NCBI GenBank assembly: GCA_965248535.1
Contig: CBDFJR010000005.1
Span: 1,152,001-1,216,000, forward strand
DNA from: Phormidesmis sp.
Lineage (GTDB): Bacteria > Cyanobacteriota > Cyanobacteriia > Leptolyngbyales > Leptolyngbyaceae
Direction of reading: 5' to 3'
DNA length: 64,000 nt
The position numbers and the translations under genes are program-made. This document shows, piece by piece, positions 4,497 to 49,774 of this stretch (positions are counted from its first letter, which is position 1; each line of letters starts with the position of its first letter). A model generated the notes under the pieces. That model was not told the DNA's origin. It saw only the letters and a program-made list of their open reading frames with translations, and made no database searches.

Positions 4497-5090
4497 TCAA
4501 GATTCTGACCCAACAAAGATATCCCTGATTTTGACTCGAGCTTGAGGTATTACAGCACAAACGATCGTATCCTCTACTCCATACACTGCTTCTTCGTAGA
4601 GTCCTTCGACCAGCGAGAGGACAGTGACTTGGTTGCGTTGAGGATCTACAATCCAATATTCTAGAATGCCTCTAGCAGCATACTCTGATCGCTTATAGCG
4701 ATAGTCTCTGGCTTCATTGGCACTACCGGGTGAGACGACTTCGATCGCAACTAGCGGCGGCGGCATATCCCGCGTAATCGTGCCTCGCGTTTGACCTTGC
4801 AGCGCAGCACCACACTCCTCTCCGAAAATCATTAAATCAGGGAATCTAGTTTTTGCCCGTCGTCCGGTGACTTCGATTTCGATTTCTTTATAGCTTAGTA
4901 GAATTAGCGGAACGCACTTCAAAAGTTCTACAAACAATCGTCTAGCTACATAGCAGTTTTCTGGCGATTCTGGGGGCATTGCGACTAGTTCTCCATCCAC
5001 CAATTCGTAGCGGGTATCGGTATCGTCGTCATAGGCGAGATATTCTTCAAAGGTAAGCTTTTGAGATTTTGATGCGGCGGTTTGAGTCAT
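4497..5090 (-). CDS. Uma2 family endonuclease
   Basis: [53 protein letters not shown]. Confidence 0.9.
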
Positions 5091-5154
5091 CGTGGTTGCC
5101 CCGGTTCACTGATTGCAATTTTAACGGTTATTGCGATCGAACTGATCACCTACC

Positions 5155-5742
5155 TCACATTCCTCGAATCACCTGCGTAAACTCACTCACCGCATCATAC
5201 TGATCTGCCATTCGCGAATACTGCGCCAACAACGCCAAATCTAAATCAGGCAGCAAAGAACTTTGGGCAACCTTTTCGTAGCCCTCCTCACACAGACAGT
5301 AGACCGAAATCATGCCGTCTTCCCAGAACCAAACTTCGGGGACTTTTAGCCGTTTGTAGATTTCTAGCTTGTTAATTCCGCCACTGGTGACTGTGATCTC
5401 TAAGACCAAATCTGGCATCAGCTTTTTAGCGCCCAAACTGTAAGCCTCATCCGGTTCTCGTCTTGCACCATCTTCCCGCTTGCCGAGGGTAGTGCTTCCC
5501 CGAACATAAAACCGAATTCCTCGCTCTCGCATGAAAGCTTCTGTCAACAAACTGACAGTGCTTTTAGGTTCTTCGTGTTCTTCAGAAAGCGGAGCCATAA
5601 TTTCTAAAAATCCGTCTAAATAGATCAAACGTGCGCCTGTGCCTTCTAGCTCTACGTCTAGTCTTTCGAGAGCATCCCAAGTGAGGTTATAGAGAAGAAC
5701 TGAGTTTTGGCGAGTTGGTTTTTCGAGAACTGGAGAATTCAT
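5155..5742 (-). CDS. Uma2 family endonuclease
   Basis: GFLEIMAP, REPDEAY, PDLVLEITVTSG, KLEIYKRLKVPEVWFWE. Confidence 0.9.
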   Translation of the reverse strand: MNSPVLEKPTRQNSVLLYNLTWDALERLDVELEGTGARLIYLDGFLEIMAPLSEEHEEPKSTVSLLTEAFMRERGIRFYVRGSTTLGKREDGARREPDEAYSLGAKKLMPDLVLEITVTSGGINKLEIYKRLKVPEVWFWEDGMISVYCLCEEGYEKVAQSSLLPDLDLALLAQYSRMADQYDAVSEFTQVIRGM

Positions 5743-5784
5743 AGGTCGATCGCTCTAAACCTGGATGTGGTTATTTTAGGCGCT

Positions 5785-8700
5785 TTAGGCAAGCCCGATC
5801 GCCGCAACTAAGCTCGATGTCCCCAATAGATTAACAGCAGTGCCAGAACAAATAGGACACATACAAGCGGCTGGCGACATTGAGGGTTGCATATTGGAGG
5901 TTGATGCAACGGTTGCCGTGAGTCCACTCGCCGAGGCGGCTGTTGGGGAAGTGCTAGCAGGCGCGATCGCTGCTGGAGCCGCAGCAGCTTGCCAACTTCC
6001 TGAGCTGCTGTAGGTATAGTAAGTGCCACCCACTAGAATCTTCATTGAGCCGTTAGACCCGTAGTAGTTTTGCAGTTGAATCGAGCCAGAAGACCCTAGC
6101 CCGATCGTCAAGTTGCTGCCACTCACCGCAGTGGTCAAATTAGACAAGTTAAAGCCCGCAAGCTCTAGACTATCGGCAGCGTTGCTAGAGTCAATCACAT
6201 CATTGCCTGTAAACGTGCCCAACATATAGCCTTTAAAGACATTGCTAGCCGAGTTAGCGATGATGTAATCATTGCCGCGAGAATTGATCAGATTTTCGAT
6301 CACTGTGCCTTTGGCGATCGTGGTGCCAAAGCCAGACGTGACGTATTGCGGGCCTTGGGCAATGCCATCACTCGGATTACTGTCCTGACCATAGTCATAA
6401 TACGTTGACCCATTGTAGGAAGCCTGAGTCGTTAAAATGCCGCCTGGATTGAGGTCAAACCGATAGTTGACCCCAGCCGCCAACCGAGAAAAATCTAAGG
6501 TGTCTACTCCACCCGCATCCCAAAGAGTTTGCTTTAACTGGGTAGTCGTGCTGCCAAAAACCTGACTGGATACTTCATAGCCATAGACGGTGTTGAAGGT
6601 GTAAGTAGTCGCATTCGCATTTTGGTTCCTCGCCCCATAGAGATATTGCAGCGCCTGAATGTCATAACTCATCGGCGTAATCGCTAAACTGCCGTAGTAT
6701 CGAGTGTCACTCGTGCCATTGTTATAGGTCATCACGGTGTTTGTGGTGTTGTCTTCAGAAGGGGATAAGAAAGGCCCTTCCGTCGTTCCGCCTCCAGCGT
6801 TGTAACTTCCAGGATGCTTCAAGCCCAGCGTGTGCAGGGTCTCATGGATCAGTGCCATATAGCCATAGGTGCCTGCGCCCCCTTCAAAACTGCTGGCTTG
6901 TCTGGGGTTCAGGTGAACATCACCCCCTGTGCCATCGCCGGGATAGTAGCCATAGGCATAAAAGCTGTAGGCGGCATTGTTGAAGTCATACTTACCATCA
7001 GAATACATATAGCGAATAACTCCGCAACTTGTAGCTGAATCCGCTACTTCGACAAACTGAACATTGATAAACGTCGCGATCGACGACAAAATTGCCCGCA
7101 CATTGTTCTTAATCGTAGCGCTGACTTCTGAAACGGCCTCGCGCCCTGTGTAAGAGCCAGACCCAGCAGAGTAAAAGCTGTAGGTAATCACTCCCCCATT
7201 CGCACTGGTGTTCCAAGCAGCATGGTCGGCGTTTAGGAGAGCCTCGATCGTGGGATTGCCAGAGGTTGCACCATAGGTGACGGTAGGATTGGTGATCACA
7301 CTGGTGATGAAGACATTTTTAGAGTCGATGCCAGTGCCTTGATTGGCGTTGTTGTTCTCATTGCTTTCGCCAACGGCATTGAGCGAATCAACAATCATGC
7401 CAATGGAGTAGTTATCCGCGCTCCCCTTAGTCCAGAAGCTATCTGCATATCCCGGTAGAGAAAAGGTTTGGCTCAACACTGCTGTGAGAGAATTGGATGC
7501 GATCGCGTCTAGATCATAGGTTGCGAGAAGCCGATCGCTGGTGGTGATCGTCGTGTCTTTTGATAGATAAAACGCCACCCGAAACGGTCGAGCATCACTG
7601 CCCGTGTTTTGAATCCTGAAATTAGCTGTTAGGCTGGCTCCGGCGGTGAGGGAGACTTGAGTTAGGTCAAAGAACGCACCAGACAACTCCGGTTGGTTGT
7701 CAAACTCCCAACTGTCTTGCCCAAAATCGGTTTGAGTCGAAAGTGGACTGCGGGCATAGTCATATTCGCTGCCCAGAAAGTTGGTGCCTGAAGCCTTCCC
7801 CTGGCTAAAGTAGTAAGGAGTGTAGACAGCCTGACTGTTGTCAACGTCGTGGTATTGATCAACAAACACTTTGCCGACATCAGTCGCGATTCCTTCTCGA
7901 CTCGACTTTGTGATGTAATATTTGCCGTTTGCGCCGATTTCGTTATTGTTAGAATTGAAATCTACAAAACTCCCAACTGTGTAGGTTCCAGGTTGACTAT
8001 AGACCCATCCACTGTAGTAGTCAGCCGTGTTGTCTTTTCCGTTGTAGTAGTAAGCAAACTCGTATTTAGAGTAGCTGACGTTATAGACCCATTTGTCTAA
8101 TCCAAAATCGTTATCGAGACTGTTTGAGTTGCCAATAAAATCGTATTCACTGCCTAGATAATTTGTACCAGAGGTTTTTCCTTGCCCGAAATAGACAGGT
8201 GTGTAGGAAGTAGCGTTTTCACTGTTGTAGTATTGATTGACAAACACTTTACCAAGATCGGCAACATTGCCCGCCACGATCGCTGACTTAATCAGATATT
8301 TGCCAGAGCAGCCCGTCTCATTTTTCTCGACAATTGGATCAAAAATCTGACCCGCGCTGTAGGTATTCGCGGAAGCATAGACATAGCCTGTATAGGAGTC
8401 TTTATTGTTGTTGCTGCCATTGTAGTAGTAGGCAAACTCGTATTTATAGACGGGCAGAGCAGCCGCCAGATCGAGGGTGTAGCCTGTAATGCCACTTCCC
8501 TTTAAGCAAAGTCGAACGTAGTAGGTGCCCGCCGATAGTGACCCACTGCTGATCGATTCGGCTGAGTTGCCTGCGATCGCAGAGGTTTGAATCACCGCCC
8601 CACTGCTGTTGAGAAGCTGAAGATCCACATCGGCCCTCAGTCCACTAAGCGTCAGGCTCAAGCTACTATCTGCGCTCAGTGTAAATTGGTAATCGTCTTC

Positions 8701-43723: not shown

Positions 43724-45037
43724 CAATAGTTCGGACAGTTTTTGCGGTCAGACGTGGACAGAAAAGCTATCCATCAGCTAGGGTGCAGATTAGAAACAAA
43801 GCGCACCGGATGGATAGCCACAGGGAAGAAATTGTACAGACCTTACTGTCAAAAGTGGGAAATTTCGCAAACCGCAATCGAAGTTTTTAGTGACGTTATT
43901 CTCGACGATTTTGGTGGTGTGTGGCAAAGTGAACTTCACGAATTTGAGTCGATACAGTGAATTGAATGAGAAGACGTATCGACGGCAGTTTATTGAAGAG
44001 GTCGACTTTGCGAAATTGAATGCAACCCTGATTCAAGCGGCAGCCGAACCGGGGCATCAGCAACTTGCAGTAATGGATTGCTCGTTCCTTCGCAAAAGCG
44101 GCAAAGCGACGTTTGGGCTAGACCGCTTCTGGAATGGCTGCAATAGTCGTGTGGAGCGAGGATTAGAGGTGTCGTTGGTGGGAGTGGTAGAGGTCGAAAC
44201 GGAGATGAGCTATGCGCTCCACGCCCAGCAAACCTTCGCTCAATCGGAGATGGCGGGCGTGAGTCGGATGGATCAGTATCTCGGTCATCTCACCCTGGTA
44301 CGCCCTCAACTTCCGCCAACGGTGCAGTATTTAGCGGTCGATGGAGCCTATGCGAAAGAGCGGTTTGTGACGGGTGCCACGCGATTGAAGTTGGCTATCA
44401 TCAGCAAACTGCGGTGTGACGCGAATCTGCGCCATCTCTATACGGGGGTGCAGAAGCAACGAGGCAGACCGCGCAAGTACGACGGCAAAGTTGACTAGAC
44501 AGACCTCAGTCGCTTCACCTTTGTGGAAACCGTGCAACCCCAAGTTGACCTCTACACTGCCCGATTGTGGCACGTCTCCTTGAAGCGGGAGATGCGAGTC
44601 GCCTACCTAGTTGACCGTCGCGTTCCGAATCGAGTCCGCACCTGCCTGCTGTTCAGTACCGATGTTGAGCAAGCCCCCAAGCAGATTATTCAGTTCTATA
44701 AATTGCGCTTCGGGATTGAATTTCTCTTTCGCGATGCCAAGCAGTTTACGGGTCTGAGTGATTGTCAAGCCCGTGACCTCTTGAAGTTAGACTTTCATTT
44801 CAATGCCAGTTTTACCGCCCTCAATCTAGCGAAGTTCGACGCGCATCCCCAGCACACCGGTCAAGACCCATTTGTATTCTCAATGGCAAGCGTTAAGCGT
44901 CGTGCCCTCAATCAACACCTACTTGAACGATTTATTGCCACCTTAGACTTGGAGCCAAGCTTGATTAAATCCCATCCCAACTACTCAACCCTTTGCAATT
45001 ACGGCACTATCGCCGCCTAAAACTGTCCGAAGTATTG
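43724..45037 (+). mobile_element. Insertion sequence (IS4/IS701-like DDE) with inactivated transposase
   Basis: 19-bp terminal IRs CAATAGTTCGGACAGTTTT / AAAACTGTCCGAAGTATTG with 1 mismatch. The transposase (DCSF, VDGAY, YKLRFGIEFLFRDAKQ) has an in-frame TAG at 44496 and a 5' frameshift near 43860. Confidence 0.92.
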
Positions 45038-45461: not shown

Positions 45462-47300
45462 TCATAGTCCTAATTCTGGCGATCGCTGCTTCCCCCTCGC
45501 CAGCTTTTTCTCCTGTTGCTTCTGGCAAGCCTGATCAACCGTCTGACGAATGTAAGCCTCAATCTTGTCTGAGCTTCGTCCCTTTTGCGTCATCTCCTGA
45601 ACAAAAGGACTGTGGTGCAGCACTTGAGCGATCTCTTGGGGCGATCGCCCATCCTCAAATGCTCTCCGTGCCGCTAAAGAATTGAGCTTCACCGTATTAC
45701 TTGCCTCAATGCCTTGGCTGTAGCGTTGCCAAAGTTGCTGACCCTCTTTTACTTTTTCTGCGGCGGAATGCCCAACCGTTCCATCATTTGCTGCTGCCCC
45801 TGCTCCAACCGTTGTAAGCGGATCTCGCTGCTGTTGACGATTTGATGGGTTCGGTTCTGCGCGACGGGCGGCAAGGTCTGAATCAAGATCCAAACGATCG
45901 CTGACACCAAAACGCTCGAAAACGTCAGCGCTCCCAGAATCCCGCGATAGGTCACTAACTCCCCGCTCAGAAACAGCTTCAGGGGGAACGCTGATTGGTT
46001 GGGCATCGCTTGCTGCACTTTCTCGACGTGACTGGTGAGCGTCACCAATCGTTGTCCGGTCTTGTCCTCTAGATTGGTCAGTCGCTCTTTCATCGCCAGG
46101 AATGATTGGTTGAAGTCGTGGCACGATCGGCTGATCACTCCCTGATTCTGTCCCACTGTGATCAGTTCGCTCTTGAAGGCGGCGAGTTCCTGGCGCATCG
46201 TCCCCATCTCGCGGCTGATGCGAGTCAACTGCTCTAACTGGTTGAGGTCGAGTTGCGTTTGATGCCGCAACTGTTGATTCATCTCTGATAAGCTGCTGCT
46301 GACCTGATTCTGGCTCTGATCTTGGTTGACCAAGTGCTGATTGATCGCCGAGAGTTCGTAGTGCAACTGCTGGAAGTACGTCAGGTATTGCTTGATCTCG
46401 ATCAGTTCTTCTTCTAGAGTTTGCGATCGCTGGCTCAAAGCTTTCAGCGATTCGCTCAAACTCTGCAACAACGTCCGCGTTGATTCCGGATTCTGAAGAT
46501 TGGAGGGGTCGATCTGCTGCTTGGCAAGTTGCCTCAAATTCTGTGGTGTGGTCATAGCGAAGTCCTTTGTACTTTTGCAGTCCTGGAAAGGTGTAAGCTC
46601 TGCCTAATTGGCTGCCACTGAATGCAATTCCATCCAACTCGTAGCTGATGCCAGTGATTTCCTGATGTCGCGTCTTGCGAAGCCGGATGTTAGTGCCCTG
46701 GTCTTTTAATCGGTGGATGAGTTGCACGATCGAGGGATTTCCTTCAGCCGCCTGGTCAATCTGAGCTTGCAACTTGACTCGAATCGGAAGTTCACCAGTT
46801 CGCTCAAATCGACGCATTTCTCCCGTGGTAGGAGCCGCCTCAACTTTTTCCCAACTCGACTGCACCGATTCCAGCTGGTATTGCTTTTCTAAGGTGCGAA
46901 TTAACGTTTCCGCTCGACGTTTTTCCCAAGAATCGCGAACGGTTGCACCGTCAGTTAATCGAATGCGACACAGCCCAATGTGAATGTGATCGTGGTCTTG
47001 GTCATGATGGCGATAGACGACATATTGACAGTTTTCGTAGCCCATTCCGGTAATGTAGTCTTGCGCGATCGCATTCCAGCGATCGTCATCGAGATGCTCA
47101 TGCTTTGGCAGCGAGAGAGAAACGTGGCAAACGGCTTTCTTCAATCTGAAATTCAATTCTCGCGCCACTCGAAACTCAGCCGCCAGTTCGCGAGGCGTTT
47201 CTCCCACCATGTTGCCGCCGATCTGTTGGGCGAACTCTTTGCCATGCAGGTAGTTCAGGAGTCCTCGAAAACTCTTTCCTTGAACAATTTTACCAATCAC
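45462..47300 (-). CDS. Relaxase, MOBP/VirD2-like
   Basis: GKSFRGLLNYL (catalytic Tyr), HVSLSLP, HHDQDHDHIHI; downstream of mobC. Confidence 0.92.
   Translation of the reverse strand: MIGKIVQGKSFRGLLNYLHGKEFAQQIGGNMVGETPRELAAEFRVARELNFRLKKAVCHVSLSLPKHEHLDDDRWNAIAQDYITGMGYENCQYVVYRHHDQDHDHIHIGLCRIRLTDGATVRDSWEKRRAETLIRTLEKQYQLESVQSSWEKVEAAPTTGEMRRFERTGELPIRVKLQAQIDQAAEGNPSIVQLIHRLKDQGTNIRLRKTRHQEITGISYELDGIAFSGSQLGRAYTFPGLQKYKGLRYDHTTEFEATCQAADRPLQSSESGINADVVAEFERIAESFEPAIANSRRRTDRDQAIPDVLPAVALRTLGDQSALGQPRSEPESGQQQLIRDESTVAASNATRPQPVRAVDSHQPRDGDDAPGTRRLQERTDHSGTESGSDQPIVPRLQPIIPGDERATDQSRGQDRTTIGDAHQSRRESAASDAQPISVPPEAVSERGVSDLSRDSGSADVFERFGVSDRLDLDSDLAARRAEPNPSNRQQQRDPLTTVGAGAAANDGTVGHSAAEKVKEGQQLWQRYSQGIEASNTVKLNSLAARRAFEDGRSPQEIAQVLHHSPFVQEMTQKGRSSDKIEAYIRQTVDQACQKQQEKKLARGKQRSPELGL
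45749..46555 (-). CDS. Nested alternate-frame coiled-coil membrane protein inside the relaxase (MobB/MbeB-like arrangement)
   Basis: 268-aa open frame, AAGGA 7 nt before the ATG, heptad-rich body and one C-proximal TM. Confidence 0.7.
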   Translation of the reverse strand: MTTPQNLRQLAKQQIDPSNLQNPESTRTLLQSLSESLKALSQRSQTLEEELIEIKQYLTYFQQLHYELSAINQHLVNQDQSQNQVSSSLSEMNQQLRHQTQLDLNQLEQLTRISREMGTMRQELAAFKSELITVGQNQGVISRSCHDFNQSFLAMKERLTNLEDKTGQRLVTLTSHVEKVQQAMPNQSAFPLKLFLSGELVTYRGILGALTFSSVLVSAIVWILIQTLPPVAQNRTHQIVNSSEIRLQRLEQGQQQMMERLGIPPQKK

Positions 47301-47701: not shown

Positions 47702-47886
47702 GTGCAAACGCAACTCAAAAATCAGGTTGAATCTGACTCAGAAACACTGCTTGCTCCTAACCTTGATCGCTCAATGTACCCCATTTGCCAATTCTGTTGA
47801 GGGGCGATCGTCAAGACTGAACGTGAGATCAATCTGCGATGCAACCCTTCTGAACTTATCGCAAAAAATTGTCTCTCTGCCTCTAA

Positions 47887-48060
47887 GTACCTACTTTTTA
47901 ACTTTATTTAACTTCTATTTACCTTTAATTGCCTTCTAAATACCTTCTTCTCTTGAAAATCTCTCAAATTAGCGATAGGGTTGTGGAAAGCAGCGGCAGT
48001 CACCTACTTTCTACCTTGTGAATGTCACTGCTTAACTTTTCAGGGTTAACCGCTACCTTC
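47887..48060. repeat. parC-like array of 10-11-bp degenerate direct repeats
   Basis: GTACCTACTT/TTTAACTTTA/TTTAACTTCTA/TTTACCTTTA/ATTGCCTTCTA/AATACCTTCT at 47887-47950, plus a second looser cluster before parM. Confidence 0.55.
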
Positions 48061-48117: not shown

Positions 48118-49266
48118 ATGACTGCTTCACCGCCAGACGTGATTATGACGATCGACACCGGAACGTCTCAGAGCAAGGTGTTCTGGAAGCATTGGTCGCA
48201 AGGCAACACAGAACTTCTGCTGATGGGATCTGAGTTTTTGGAGATTGCTTCCAGCGATTTACTCGACACTGGACTCTCTGGAGGCAGACCCGAAAACGAT
48301 GCTTTCCTCGAACTCGCTAACGGCAAAACCTATGTGTTGGGAATGAAGGCTCAACAAATGCGCGGCAAACCACCTGCGGGGTTGAGTAAGTATGAGTTTG
48401 CAGCGTACAAAGCTTTGGCAATCATTGGCGCGATCGCGGAAACCGCAAATTTGCCAGATAGTTTTACGATCGCGCTGTCTGCTCTATTGCCTTACAAGGA
48501 ATATCAGGATCGCAAAGCCTTTCATGATCTGCTTACGAGTAACCTGGCTGGGTTTAATTTCCGAGGTTGGCATTACTCAGTGTCTGCGCTCACGTTAGAA
48601 GTCAAGCCAGAGGGAGCGGGACTGGCTCAGAGCCGTCGCAACGATGCACCTAAATCCTTTAGCGACAGAAACATTCTGGTAGTCATGGTCGGTCAGCGGG
48701 ATGCCTCACTCCTACCATTCAAACAAGGCACACCTCAAAGCGGTCAGGGAGTTCGGTTGGGGTTTGAGCAGTTTTTGGAAGCGATCGTGTCTCGTGCCTC
48801 GCTCAATCTGGACAACAGAGATGCCGGACGGCTGACGGAGTATCTCTTCCAAACTCAAGAAAATCCCAAAATGGTCGAGCGGATTGCTCGAATGGTCGTA
48901 ACCGAATCTGAGGTCGGGCGCAAGGCAGAACAAATCAGAGAAGCGATCTCAACCGCTAAAAATCGCTATGCGCGGGACTTACTAGACTGGATTAAATCTG
49001 CACTGGGGCAAGACCTTTACGAGTTTGATGAAGCGATCGTCTCTGGAGGTGCTGCTTTGTATCTCAAGGACGAGCTTGAAGCCTTCTTTGCCGAATACAA
49101 CTTAGAGGTATCTTGGGCTGCGAATCTACAAGAGCAAATCAATCAATCGCTGGTTTACCCCATTGATTTGGTTCTAGCTTGCCGCGTCTCGGATGCGTTT
49201 GGGGTGTTTAAGCTGCTGGGCGGCAAAGTGAGTAGACTGGCGGAAGGAATGACGATCGTTCGATAG
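48118..49266 (+). CDS. parM: ParM/StbA family actin-like ATPase
   Basis: IDTGTSQSK phosphate-1, VKPEGAG connect-1, MVGQRDAS phosphate-2, SGGAA adenosine motif. Confidence 0.85.
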   Translation: MTASPPDVIMTIDTGTSQSKVFWKHWSQGNTELLLMGSEFLEIASSDLLDTGLSGGRPENDAFLELANGKTYVLGMKAQQMRGKPPAGLSKYEFAAYKALAIIGAIAETANLPDSFTIALSALLPYKEYQDRKAFHDLLTSNLAGFNFRGWHYSVSALTLEVKPEGAGLAQSRRNDAPKSFSDRNILVVMVGQRDASLLPFKQGTPQSGQGVRLGFEQFLEAIVSRASLNLDNRDAGRLTEYLFQTQENPKMVERIARMVVTESEVGRKAEQIREAISTAKNRYARDLLDWIKSALGQDLYEFDEAIVSGGAALYLKDELEAFFAEYNLEVSWAANLQEQINQSLVYPIDLVLACRVSDAFGVFKLLGGKVSRLAEGMTIVR

Positions 49267-49276
49267 GAATGTCTCA

Positions 49277-49774
49277 ATGTCCACGAAAAAGTTTGACTAT
49301 CGGGTCAGAGTCCAAGTTGCAGCAGATAGTCCAGATGGGGTGCTGCTGGACTGCATCAAGAATGAGCGGCATCAATCCTACTCGCACAAGGAAATGCTGT
49401 TATGGGCGCTGCGGGCATACTGGATGCCCACGGCTTACCAGCTTCAACGAGAGCAAGGGGATTCGTCAATTTCAGATGCCCAGATGAAGCGGATCGCCTT
49501 AGATGCCATTCATCAACTTAAGCAGCAAATTTCCTACCTTCAATCGACGTTTGAAGTCGGGCAAGATTATCCAACCGAAGGAGCAACCGTCGCACCTTCC
49601 TCGCAGCCGTTGCGATCGCTCGTCGCAACCCATGCAACTTCAGAAACCATCGCAGCGAGTCCATCAAATCCTGCCAACGCTTCCGAAACAATCTCTATTG
49701 CAGATGGAGAAGTCTCTCAAGAACCCGGTGAGGAATGGTACGACAGCGATGACTTATTCGACTCTCAAGTTTAG
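49277..49774 (+). CDS. Putative ParR-like adaptor
   Basis: Directly after parM; EMLLWALRAYWMP helix and acidic disordered tail. Function inferred from position. Confidence 0.6.
   Translation: MSTKKFDYRVRVQVAADSPDGVLLDCIKNERHQSYSHKEMLLWALRAYWMPTAYQLQREQGDSSISDAQMKRIALDAIHQLKQQISYLQSTFEVGQDYPTEGATVAPSSQPLRSLVATHATSETIAASPSNPANASETISIADGEVSQEPGEEWYDSDDLFDSQV

Follow-up and report, generated by a model that had tools for sequence, protein, structure and literature searches.

Does the relaxase gene of a cyanobacterial mobilisation locus encode a second protein in another reading frame and, if so, what could that protein do? The question is raised by a locus of Phormidesmis sp. that lies in a 64,000-nucleotide (nt) stretch of contig CBDFJR010000005.1 (assembly GCA_965248535.1), referred to here as the window. 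Inside the relaxase open reading frame (ORF) of this locus, on the same strand, lies a complete second ORF, which we designated the nested gene. There is little doubt that the nested gene is real and under purifying selection. For the locus as a whole, the explanation that we favour on balance is a stretch of DNA coding in two frames, the second of which specifies a MobB-like, membrane-anchored accessory protein for mobilisation.

The nested gene and its start

An earlier reading of this DNA from the letters alone (the sequence-only reading) had described an alternate frame of 807 bp on the strand of the relaxase, with its own AAGGA ribosome-binding site. Both minus-strand ORFs and the AAGGA motif were confirmed (Table 1). 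The nested ORF starts 745 nt into the relaxase ORF, and thus in its +1 frame, and it occupies nt 746-1552 of that ORF. The ATG and a purine-rich AAGGA/AGGGA motif were retained in 6/6 close loci. An N-terminal motif, MSNP/MTTPQ, recurred among the nested proteins, and distant members of the family start with an MSNP-like motif. The nested gene has an independent start at its own Shine-Dalgarno-like motif and ATG. A programmed frameshift that would fuse the relaxase head to the nested frame was rejected, given the conserved start and the nested-frame stops that precede the ATG by just 1-2 codons in L008, L010 and L004 (locus and protein numbers are our own).

Selection in the two frames

When the nucleotide sequences of the six close relaxase genes were aligned, pairwise differences within nt 1-720 were concentrated at the third position of the relaxase codons in every 60-nt bin. 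Between nt 721 and 1560 they were concentrated, again in every bin, at relaxase position 1, which is the third position of the nested frame, and from nt 1561 to the end they were back on relaxase position 3. Ratios of nonsynonymous to synonymous substitution rates (dN/dS) were calculated by the Nei-Gojobori method (NG86) for ten pairs of five loci. In the relaxase frame they were 0.045-0.09 for the head and 0.08-0.24 for the tail. Across the overlap dN/dS was 0.07-0.21 in the nested frame and 1.6-4.6 in the relaxase frame, the latter resembling the out-of-frame controls from head and tail (1.0-3.3). The wobble switch at the ORF borders and the dN/dS values together indicate that the sequence of the nested protein carries the amino-acid constraint of the overlap. 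The switch recurred in an independent pair of loci with MobQ relaxases, L004 and L005: differences at codon positions 1, 2 and 3 numbered 37/34/87 ahead of the overlap, 44/7/6 inside it and 17/9/19 beyond it. Within the overlap, the constrained amino-acid sequence is the nested one.

The sequence-only reading had proposed that dN/dS be compared frame by frame and that dual open frames be sought in homologous relaxases. The first comparison favoured the nested frame, as given above. In the second, the nested frame was open in 5/6 close loci, intact in the more distant loci L004, L005, L008, L010, L022 and L027, and open as well in L024, whose host ORF exceeds both ends of the locus.

By eye, the relaxase-frame motif VAEFERIAE was seen at 46440-46480, where the overlap begins. 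AEFxRxAE-like versions (TAEFDRLAE, TAELRRINE) are present in the MobQ relaxases of L004, L005 and L010, and this short stretch may be constrained in both frames.

Openness of the two frames

Across the overlap, the GC content of codon positions 1, 2 and 3 was unusual in both frames (0.54/0.34/0.71 in the nested frame and 0.71/0.54/0.34 in the relaxase frame, with about 0.61/0.39/0.51 in the flanking parts of the relaxase). Openness was assessed by holding the protein of one frame fixed, shuffling its synonymous codons and counting how often the other frame stayed open. When the nested protein of the window was fixed, the relaxase frame acquired a mean of 5.1 stops (12.8 with the codon usage of the window) versus 0 observed, and it was stop-free in 0.12-0.17% of shuffles. 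When the relaxase protein was fixed, the nested frame was as open as observed in 1.1-6.1% of shuffles, a result that is borderline if taken alone. The sequence of the window by itself makes dual coding likely and leaves the nested gene unproven; it is the comparative evidence that decides.

That evidence bears directly on the idea that the nested frame is open by chance, in a linker of low complexity, and is no gene. The shuffles with the relaxase protein fixed leave some room for such an event, the frequency of 1.1-6.1% in the window rising to as much as 26% in some loci. Against it stand the wobble-phase switch at the ORF borders, the nested-frame dN/dS of 0.07-0.21, and the conservation of start, N-terminal motif and transmembrane (TM) helix in proteins that share 29-69% identity across relaxase classes. 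The chance frame was refuted by the per-frame dN/dS, the six-locus wobble switch and the L004/L005 pair, and we regard it as extremely improbable.

The relaxase frame had no internal stop across the overlap in 13/13 homologous loci. With the nested protein fixed, shuffles gave 2.8-9.9 expected stops in the relaxase frame in 11/12 loci tested; a stop-free frame occurred in at most 0.2% of shuffles in 9/12 loci and in 1.9-2.7% in 2 more. In the GC-rich locus L024 it occurred in 33% of shuffles, a result that is not significant and is uninformative.

A different objection is that the two genes are merely adjacent, the relaxase consisting of its N-terminal domain only, the read-through being meaningless and the tail being made from an internal start. 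The linker sequence is indeed unconstrained, with its relaxase-frame dN/dS of 1.6-4.6, and in IncQ plasmids the primase part is likewise made separately, from a repB ORF that overlaps mobA (PMC5572225). Stops are nevertheless absent from a frame in which several were expected in nearly all loci tested, and this openness is unexplained unless the fusion protein is made, which rules out adjacent genes as the principal reading; we consider it very unlikely. A related rival is that a separate tail product is made in addition to the full-length relaxase. The sequence-only reading had named a relaxase ending before 46555 as the finding that would undo dual coding; the relaxase does not end there, since all 13 loci have a stop-free relaxase frame and purifying selection acts on the tail. 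What selection preserves in the relaxase linker is its openness, not its sequence.

The relaxase and its tail

The head of the window relaxase matched PF03432 with 114.7 bits (curated cut-off 24.6) and bears the histidine-triad motif HHDQDHDHIH; sub-threshold matches to TraI_MobP_relax were also obtained. The claim that the relaxase frame runs on into a further C-terminal domain held, in that no stop intervenes and the 94-amino-acid (aa) tail is folded and resembles the helix bundle of the RepB' primase. Folded alone from a 7-row alignment, the tail formed a five-helix bundle (predicted local distance difference test, pLDDT, 86; predicted template-modelling score, pTM, 0.73). In a Foldseek search with this model, the RSF1010 primase RepB' (3h20) ranked third by E-value, with a probability of 0.97, a TM-score of 0.58 and 25% identity. 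The Pfam model RepB_primase_C lent independent support, with a match at E 7.7e-4 and 19.7 bits, below its cut-off of 26.1; it was matched by 4/7 tails. A sequence profile search of the tails against the PDB did not list RepB', hhalign of the tails against IncQ1 MobA gave no match, and no primase catalytic domain was detected in the relaxase ORF, the tail being only 94 aa long. The tail is a probable, not proven, RepB'-like C-terminal helical domain.

The nested protein

The nested protein was modelled with AlphaFold2 from an 18-row alignment (mean pLDDT 81, pTM 0.29). In the model, residues 23-183 form one helix, which a loop of low confidence and a short hairpin separate from the TM helix (203-227); the last helix covers 230-261. 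A single, strongly hydrophobic segment spans residues 206-224 (Kyte-Doolittle 19-residue mean 2.28), and one segment with a 19-residue mean of at least 1.7 was found in 17/18 aligned members, the exception, P0009, being a cut-short sequence. Of the features described by the sequence-only reading, the single TM helix was supported by both hydropathy and AlphaFold2, and the long coiled coil by the AlphaFold2 helix. The conserved core of the family consists of FPxKLxLxGExVTYRG, a Trp-bearing TM helix, and then LPP and (R)INxRVNNxEIRLxRIE, and it is the module after the TM helix that drives the profile matches. The N-terminal coiled coil varies in length across the family from almost nothing to about 200 residues. 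The protein has a calculated isoelectric point (pI) of 7.9 and carries neither a lipoprotein signal nor an N-terminal signal peptide. Given a large N-terminal part and no signal peptide, the topology is probably N-in.

A Foldseek search of the predicted fold against the PDB gave no match at E <=0.001. The nearest ESM Atlas cluster, DUF6753 (score 0.88), was dropped, as hmmscan listed this family for 0/18 members at E <=1; moreover, the only DUF6753 gene found in 5 genomes is free-standing, un-nested and located after a ParA-like ORF.

Relatives of the nested gene

A tblastn search of plasmids (PLSDB) returned three records, each with its match beneath an annotated relaxase: one Leptolyngbya plasmid (identity of 68.7% along the entire protein) and two plasmids of Gloeothece PCC 7424 with MobQ relaxases. 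The Gloeothece plasmids contain intact 180-aa ORFs of the same build in the +1 frame of mobQ. All three records list only the relaxase under the match, in agreement with the expectation that standard annotation would overlook the gene. Pattern scans and whole-genome profile searches added L006, L007, L008, L009, L010, L021, L022, L023, L024 and L027. In each of 13 other loci a longer same-strand ORF encloses the family member, which is read in its +1 frame. These host ORFs carry PF03432 in the window, L021, L008 and L027, MobA_MobL in L004 and L010, and TraI-type helicase domains in L024; no head-domain match was found within the locus stretch examined for L022 and L023. Nested proteins found with these different classes of relaxase share 29-69% identity.

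The family is rare. At E <=1e-4, and with the organism's own genome included, it was found in 8/401 genomes at class level (two of them weak) and in 2/401 at phylum level. When 1.84 billion representative proteins were searched exhaustively with the profile, 13 matched at E <=0.001. A collection of 5.8 billion proteins held one close relative of near length, P0001, which is identical to the translation of L007; its source labels it a 'predicted RNase H-like nuclease (RuvC/YqgF family)', a name without support in the sequence. In a single-protein metagenome scan, 0 of 105 pattern matches were confirmed. Weak profile matches (L002 at E 5.4e-4 and seven others at E 6.5e-4 to 9e-3) were left out of the family. 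L011 was rejected as a PilO-like protein with a TM segment and coil, and L025 (E 3.7e-6, two stops) was not accepted, as hmmsearch did not recover it.

Several relatives depart from the common arrangement. The closest plasmid copy, L003, has a single in-frame TAA (L003:3496-3498) where its relatives have CAA; the sequence downstream is still conserved in the nested frame, so that the TAA reflects either a recent nonsense mutation or an error of sequencing. A second relaxase on this plasmid has an intact nested gene. In L023 (483-2177) just the 91-codon C-terminal module is open in the +1 frame, and it is the relaxase frame that has a Q-rich, coiled-coil-like stretch, an arrangement suggestive of a frameshift, a fusion or an assembly indel. 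P0014 (L026:1492-2343, minus strand) shares the coiled coil, the TM helix and the INSRLNSVEIRL tail; its gene is located upstream of a leuB-like gene, with no same-strand ORF enclosing it. It is named a hypothetical protein by one source, and P0015 is its one other relative. P0014 suggests that the family predates, or can escape, the relaxase context. In L008 (3203-3769) and L027 (reverse, locus 2116-2619), a second, coiled-coil-like +1 ORF of 189 and 168 codons, respectively, lies directly upstream of the nested gene, a single stop away from it. These two upstream ORFs are mutually conserved (BLASTP E 8e-15, 32% identity), and L022 has a similar upstream frame.

Comparison with known nested mobilisation genes

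MobB of R1162 is a membrane-associated protein. The transport signals of the R1162 relaxase reportedly require MobB, going by the title of work by Parker and Meyer in 2007. As reference we used L033, an IncQ1 plasmid annotated with an 'IncQ-type mobilization protein MobB' and found by tblastn with a MobQ head. Its mobA ORF (4501-6612, 703 codons) contains mobB (5249-5659) in the +1 frame, 748 nt from the start, and its MobB is a 136-aa protein with a helical, Q/A-rich N-terminal part, one C-proximal hydrophobic segment (by eye) and a short tail. The RSF1010-like layout claimed by the sequence-only reading was borne out: both nested genes lie on the strand of the relaxase gene and in its +1 frame, they start just after the nuclease domain (745 nt into the host ORF in the window versus 748 nt), and each product combines a helical N-terminal part with a single C-proximal TM segment and a short tail. 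The downstream domain probably agrees as well, the host ORF of the window continuing into a tail that resembles the C-terminal helix bundle of RepB'. The overlap of both mobB and repB with mobA has been described (PMC5572225).

The two systems also differ. The window protein is 268 aa long, versus 136 aa for IncQ1 MobB, and has a conserved motif after the TM helix. Its relaxase head belongs to PF03432, not MobA_MobL, the relaxase tail is only 94 aa long with no primase catalytic domain found, and the host is a cyanobacterium. No MobB-type NCBIfam match was obtained for the nested protein. Sequence homology with MobB was tested and not found, so that the nested gene is best called an 'analogue'. 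It corresponds to the mobB found inside mobA/repB of IncQ plasmids (RSF1010/R1162) in position, frame and architecture and probably also in its flanking domains. The layout is the IncQ mobA-mobB-repB' plan, in its repB' part probably so, with an unrelated protein family, a different relaxase head and a cyanobacterial host.

A second precedent is traH of RP4, like the nested gene an accessory gene in another frame inside a MOBP-type relaxase gene. TraH is encoded within traI, stabilises the relaxosome and is acidic (PMC7314908). By analogy, the nested protein might be a TraH-like relaxosome or DNA-processing accessory, or a regulator of the relaxase, with no part in docking to a channel. The host relaxase, of the PF03432 or TraI_MobP-like type, belongs to the same class as the relaxase whose gene, traI, contains traH (PMC7314908), and nesting makes co-transcription obligatory. 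The acidic character of TraH in its description is at odds with the pI of 7.9 of the window protein, and the strongly conserved TM helix and its flanks point to a membrane function. We consider a TraH-like role unlikely, if not strikingly so.

The small accessory genes mbeB and mbeD of the mobilisation region of ColE1 overlap its relaxase gene, and the two stacked +1 ORFs of L008 and L027 recall this arrangement. Pfam presumably holds Mbe models. No Mbe-type Pfam match was found for the 18 members at E <=1, nor for 6 nested or stacked ORFs at E <=0.1. MbeB is described as part of the relaxosome and MbeD as a putative entry-exclusion protein (PMC5935869). The nested protein could, on this model, be an MbeD-like entry-exclusion or immunity protein of the membrane that blocks re-entry of related elements. 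Its small size, single membrane pass and conserved short tail past the TM helix would suit such a role, as would the description of MbeD (PMC5935869) and the existence of a homologue away from any relaxase. The lack of an Mbe-family match at E up to 0.1-1, of a lipoprotein signal and of an N-terminal signal peptide weighs on the other side, as does the link to the relaxase linker, which is retained across three kinds of relaxase. We regard exclusion as quite improbable.

Proposed function

We return to the preferred explanation, a MobB-like accessory protein, and give the MobB-like function itself an even chance. By analogy with the IncQ system, one transcript of the mobC-relaxase operon would be translated into the full-length relaxase and, from an internal start, into the nested protein. 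Read in the relaxase frame, the overlap yields no more than an unconstrained, probably disordered linker joining the nuclease domain to the RepB'-like tail. The nested protein would have its anchor in the inner membrane and a cytoplasmic coiled coil; it may bind the relaxase or the relaxosome and hold either at the membrane, and could present the relaxase to a coupling protein or to an export channel, either of them provided in trans. The binding of the relaxase and the role in transfer are modelled on MobB and are put forward as presumptive, as is the membrane tether to a helper transfer system that the sequence-only reading had considered possible.

A number of observations weigh against this proposal. 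The 268-aa product matched no Pfam or NCBIfam family beyond weak coiled-coil noise, and hhalign of the family profile against IncQ1 MobB gave a probability of 0.3% over 8 aligned columns. The coiled coil, which would face the relaxase if the protein is N-in, is highly variable in length; the best-conserved part is the TM helix with the 30-45-residue tail beyond it, and the charges that flank the helix leave the topology undecided. The internal TAA of the close copy L003, and the retention of only the C-terminal module in L023, indicate that the gene can be lost, and the free-standing homologue P0014 (profile E 2.3e-10) has no relaxase around it. The locus itself lies in a contig of at least 1.2 Mb beside a split transposase, and this copy could be a relic. 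Lastly, the host genome (99.76% complete) had no VirB4-type match over the cut-off with PF03135 or PF12846. On another contig it contains a single ORF resembling a type IV coupling protein (PF02534, E 2.7e-28) and, about 10 kb away from this ORF, a second PF03432 relaxase (C2:2374725-2386231). With no VirB4-type match and only these two genes, no helper transfer system is evident in the host.

Another way to accommodate a host without a VirB4-type match to a type IV secretion system is to envisage a non-canonical exit route. The nested protein and the RepB'-like tail might then form a portable 'export module', brought by recombination to at least three kinds of cyanobacterial relaxase head and docking the complex of relaxase and DNA to, for example, type IV pilus or competence-type machinery. 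We hold this to be a long shot; if true, such a module would explain the movement of many relaxase-bearing cyanobacterial plasmids.

Surroundings of the locus

The immediate neighbours of the mob module are a split DDE transposase, a ParM-like ATPase gene, a DUF5895 gene and metal-efflux genes, and the wider surroundings hold chromosomal-looking genes (a TonB system, LexA, Dus). Directly 3' of the relaxase, at 43890-45020, the transposase is split into two ORFs of 202 and 165 aa (DDE_5, DDE_Tnp_1), and it is likely that a broken insertion sequence borders the module. Divergent from the mob operon, at 48118-49774, are the gene for a ParM/actin-like ATPase (382 aa, with a weak MreB-like_C match) and a 165-aa ORF. 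These two resemble plasmid-partition genes and lie inside a contig of at least 1.2 Mb. The mob module is probably an integrated or decaying mobilisable element in which both frames of the relaxase region are intact.

Besides the conserved non-coding block listed in Table 1, a second one was found at 47738-47774, upstream of the mobC-like gene, in the alignment of six loci. A ACCCTACCG core is present in the conserved non-coding blocks (47885-48000 and 47738-47774). No nic site was identified in the conserved upstream block. The blocks are a candidate origin of transfer (oriT) or binding region for an accessory protein.

Table 1. Features of the mob locus and of its encoded proteins, in window coordinates.
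Feature	Coordinates	Strand	Evidence and remarks
Relaxase ORF	45462..47300	minus	612 codons, GTG start; nuclease domain, linker, folded tail
MobA/VirD2-like nuclease domain, PF03432, residues 25-143	46872..47228	minus	Pfam E 4.7e-33, HHDQDHDHIH histidine motif
Relaxase C-terminal tail, residues 519-612, 94 aa	45465..45746	minus	Five-helix bundle, RepB'-like
Nested gene	45749..46555	minus	268 codons + TAA, ATG start, +1 frame of relaxase ORF
Shine-Dalgarno-like AAGGA	46563..46567	minus	7 nt before nested ATG (46553-46555)
Long helix/coiled coil of nested protein, residues 23-183, Q- and L-rich	46007..46489	minus	AlphaFold2, block pLDDT mostly 85-94
Single TM helix of nested protein, residues 203-227	45875..45949	minus	Hydropathy and AlphaFold2; FPxKLxLxGExVTYRG motif just before
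C-terminal helix of nested protein, residues 230-261	45773..45868	minus	Alignment and AlphaFold2; motif LPP...VNxxEIRLxRxE, most conserved of the family
NikA-like/MobC relaxosome accessory gene, 132 aa	47315..47713	minus	Pfam NikA-like E 3.6e-13, MobC E 1.5e-07; upstream of relaxase
Conserved non-coding block with repeated (A/T)AGGTA words	47885..48000		Alignment of 6 loci; upstream of mobC-like gene

Significance

A literature search on overlapping or overprinted genes in cyanobacterial plasmid relaxases, and on CyRepA with relaxase, found no description of such a gene. Gene callers miss it: the three plasmid records show the relaxase only, and the one close protein relative bears a probably wrong name. 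Because the gene is unannotated, mobility studies or vector designs that trim or tag these relaxases would unknowingly disturb a second, selected protein. The locus is a clean natural case of dual coding, in which one frame has all of the amino-acid constraint and the other is selected only as an open linker. The occurrence of the nested family on PF03432, MobA_MobL and TraI-helicase relaxases, together with a tail that resembles RepB', suggests that the IncQ mobA-mobB-repB' plan predates the IncQ plasmids and is more modular than they are.

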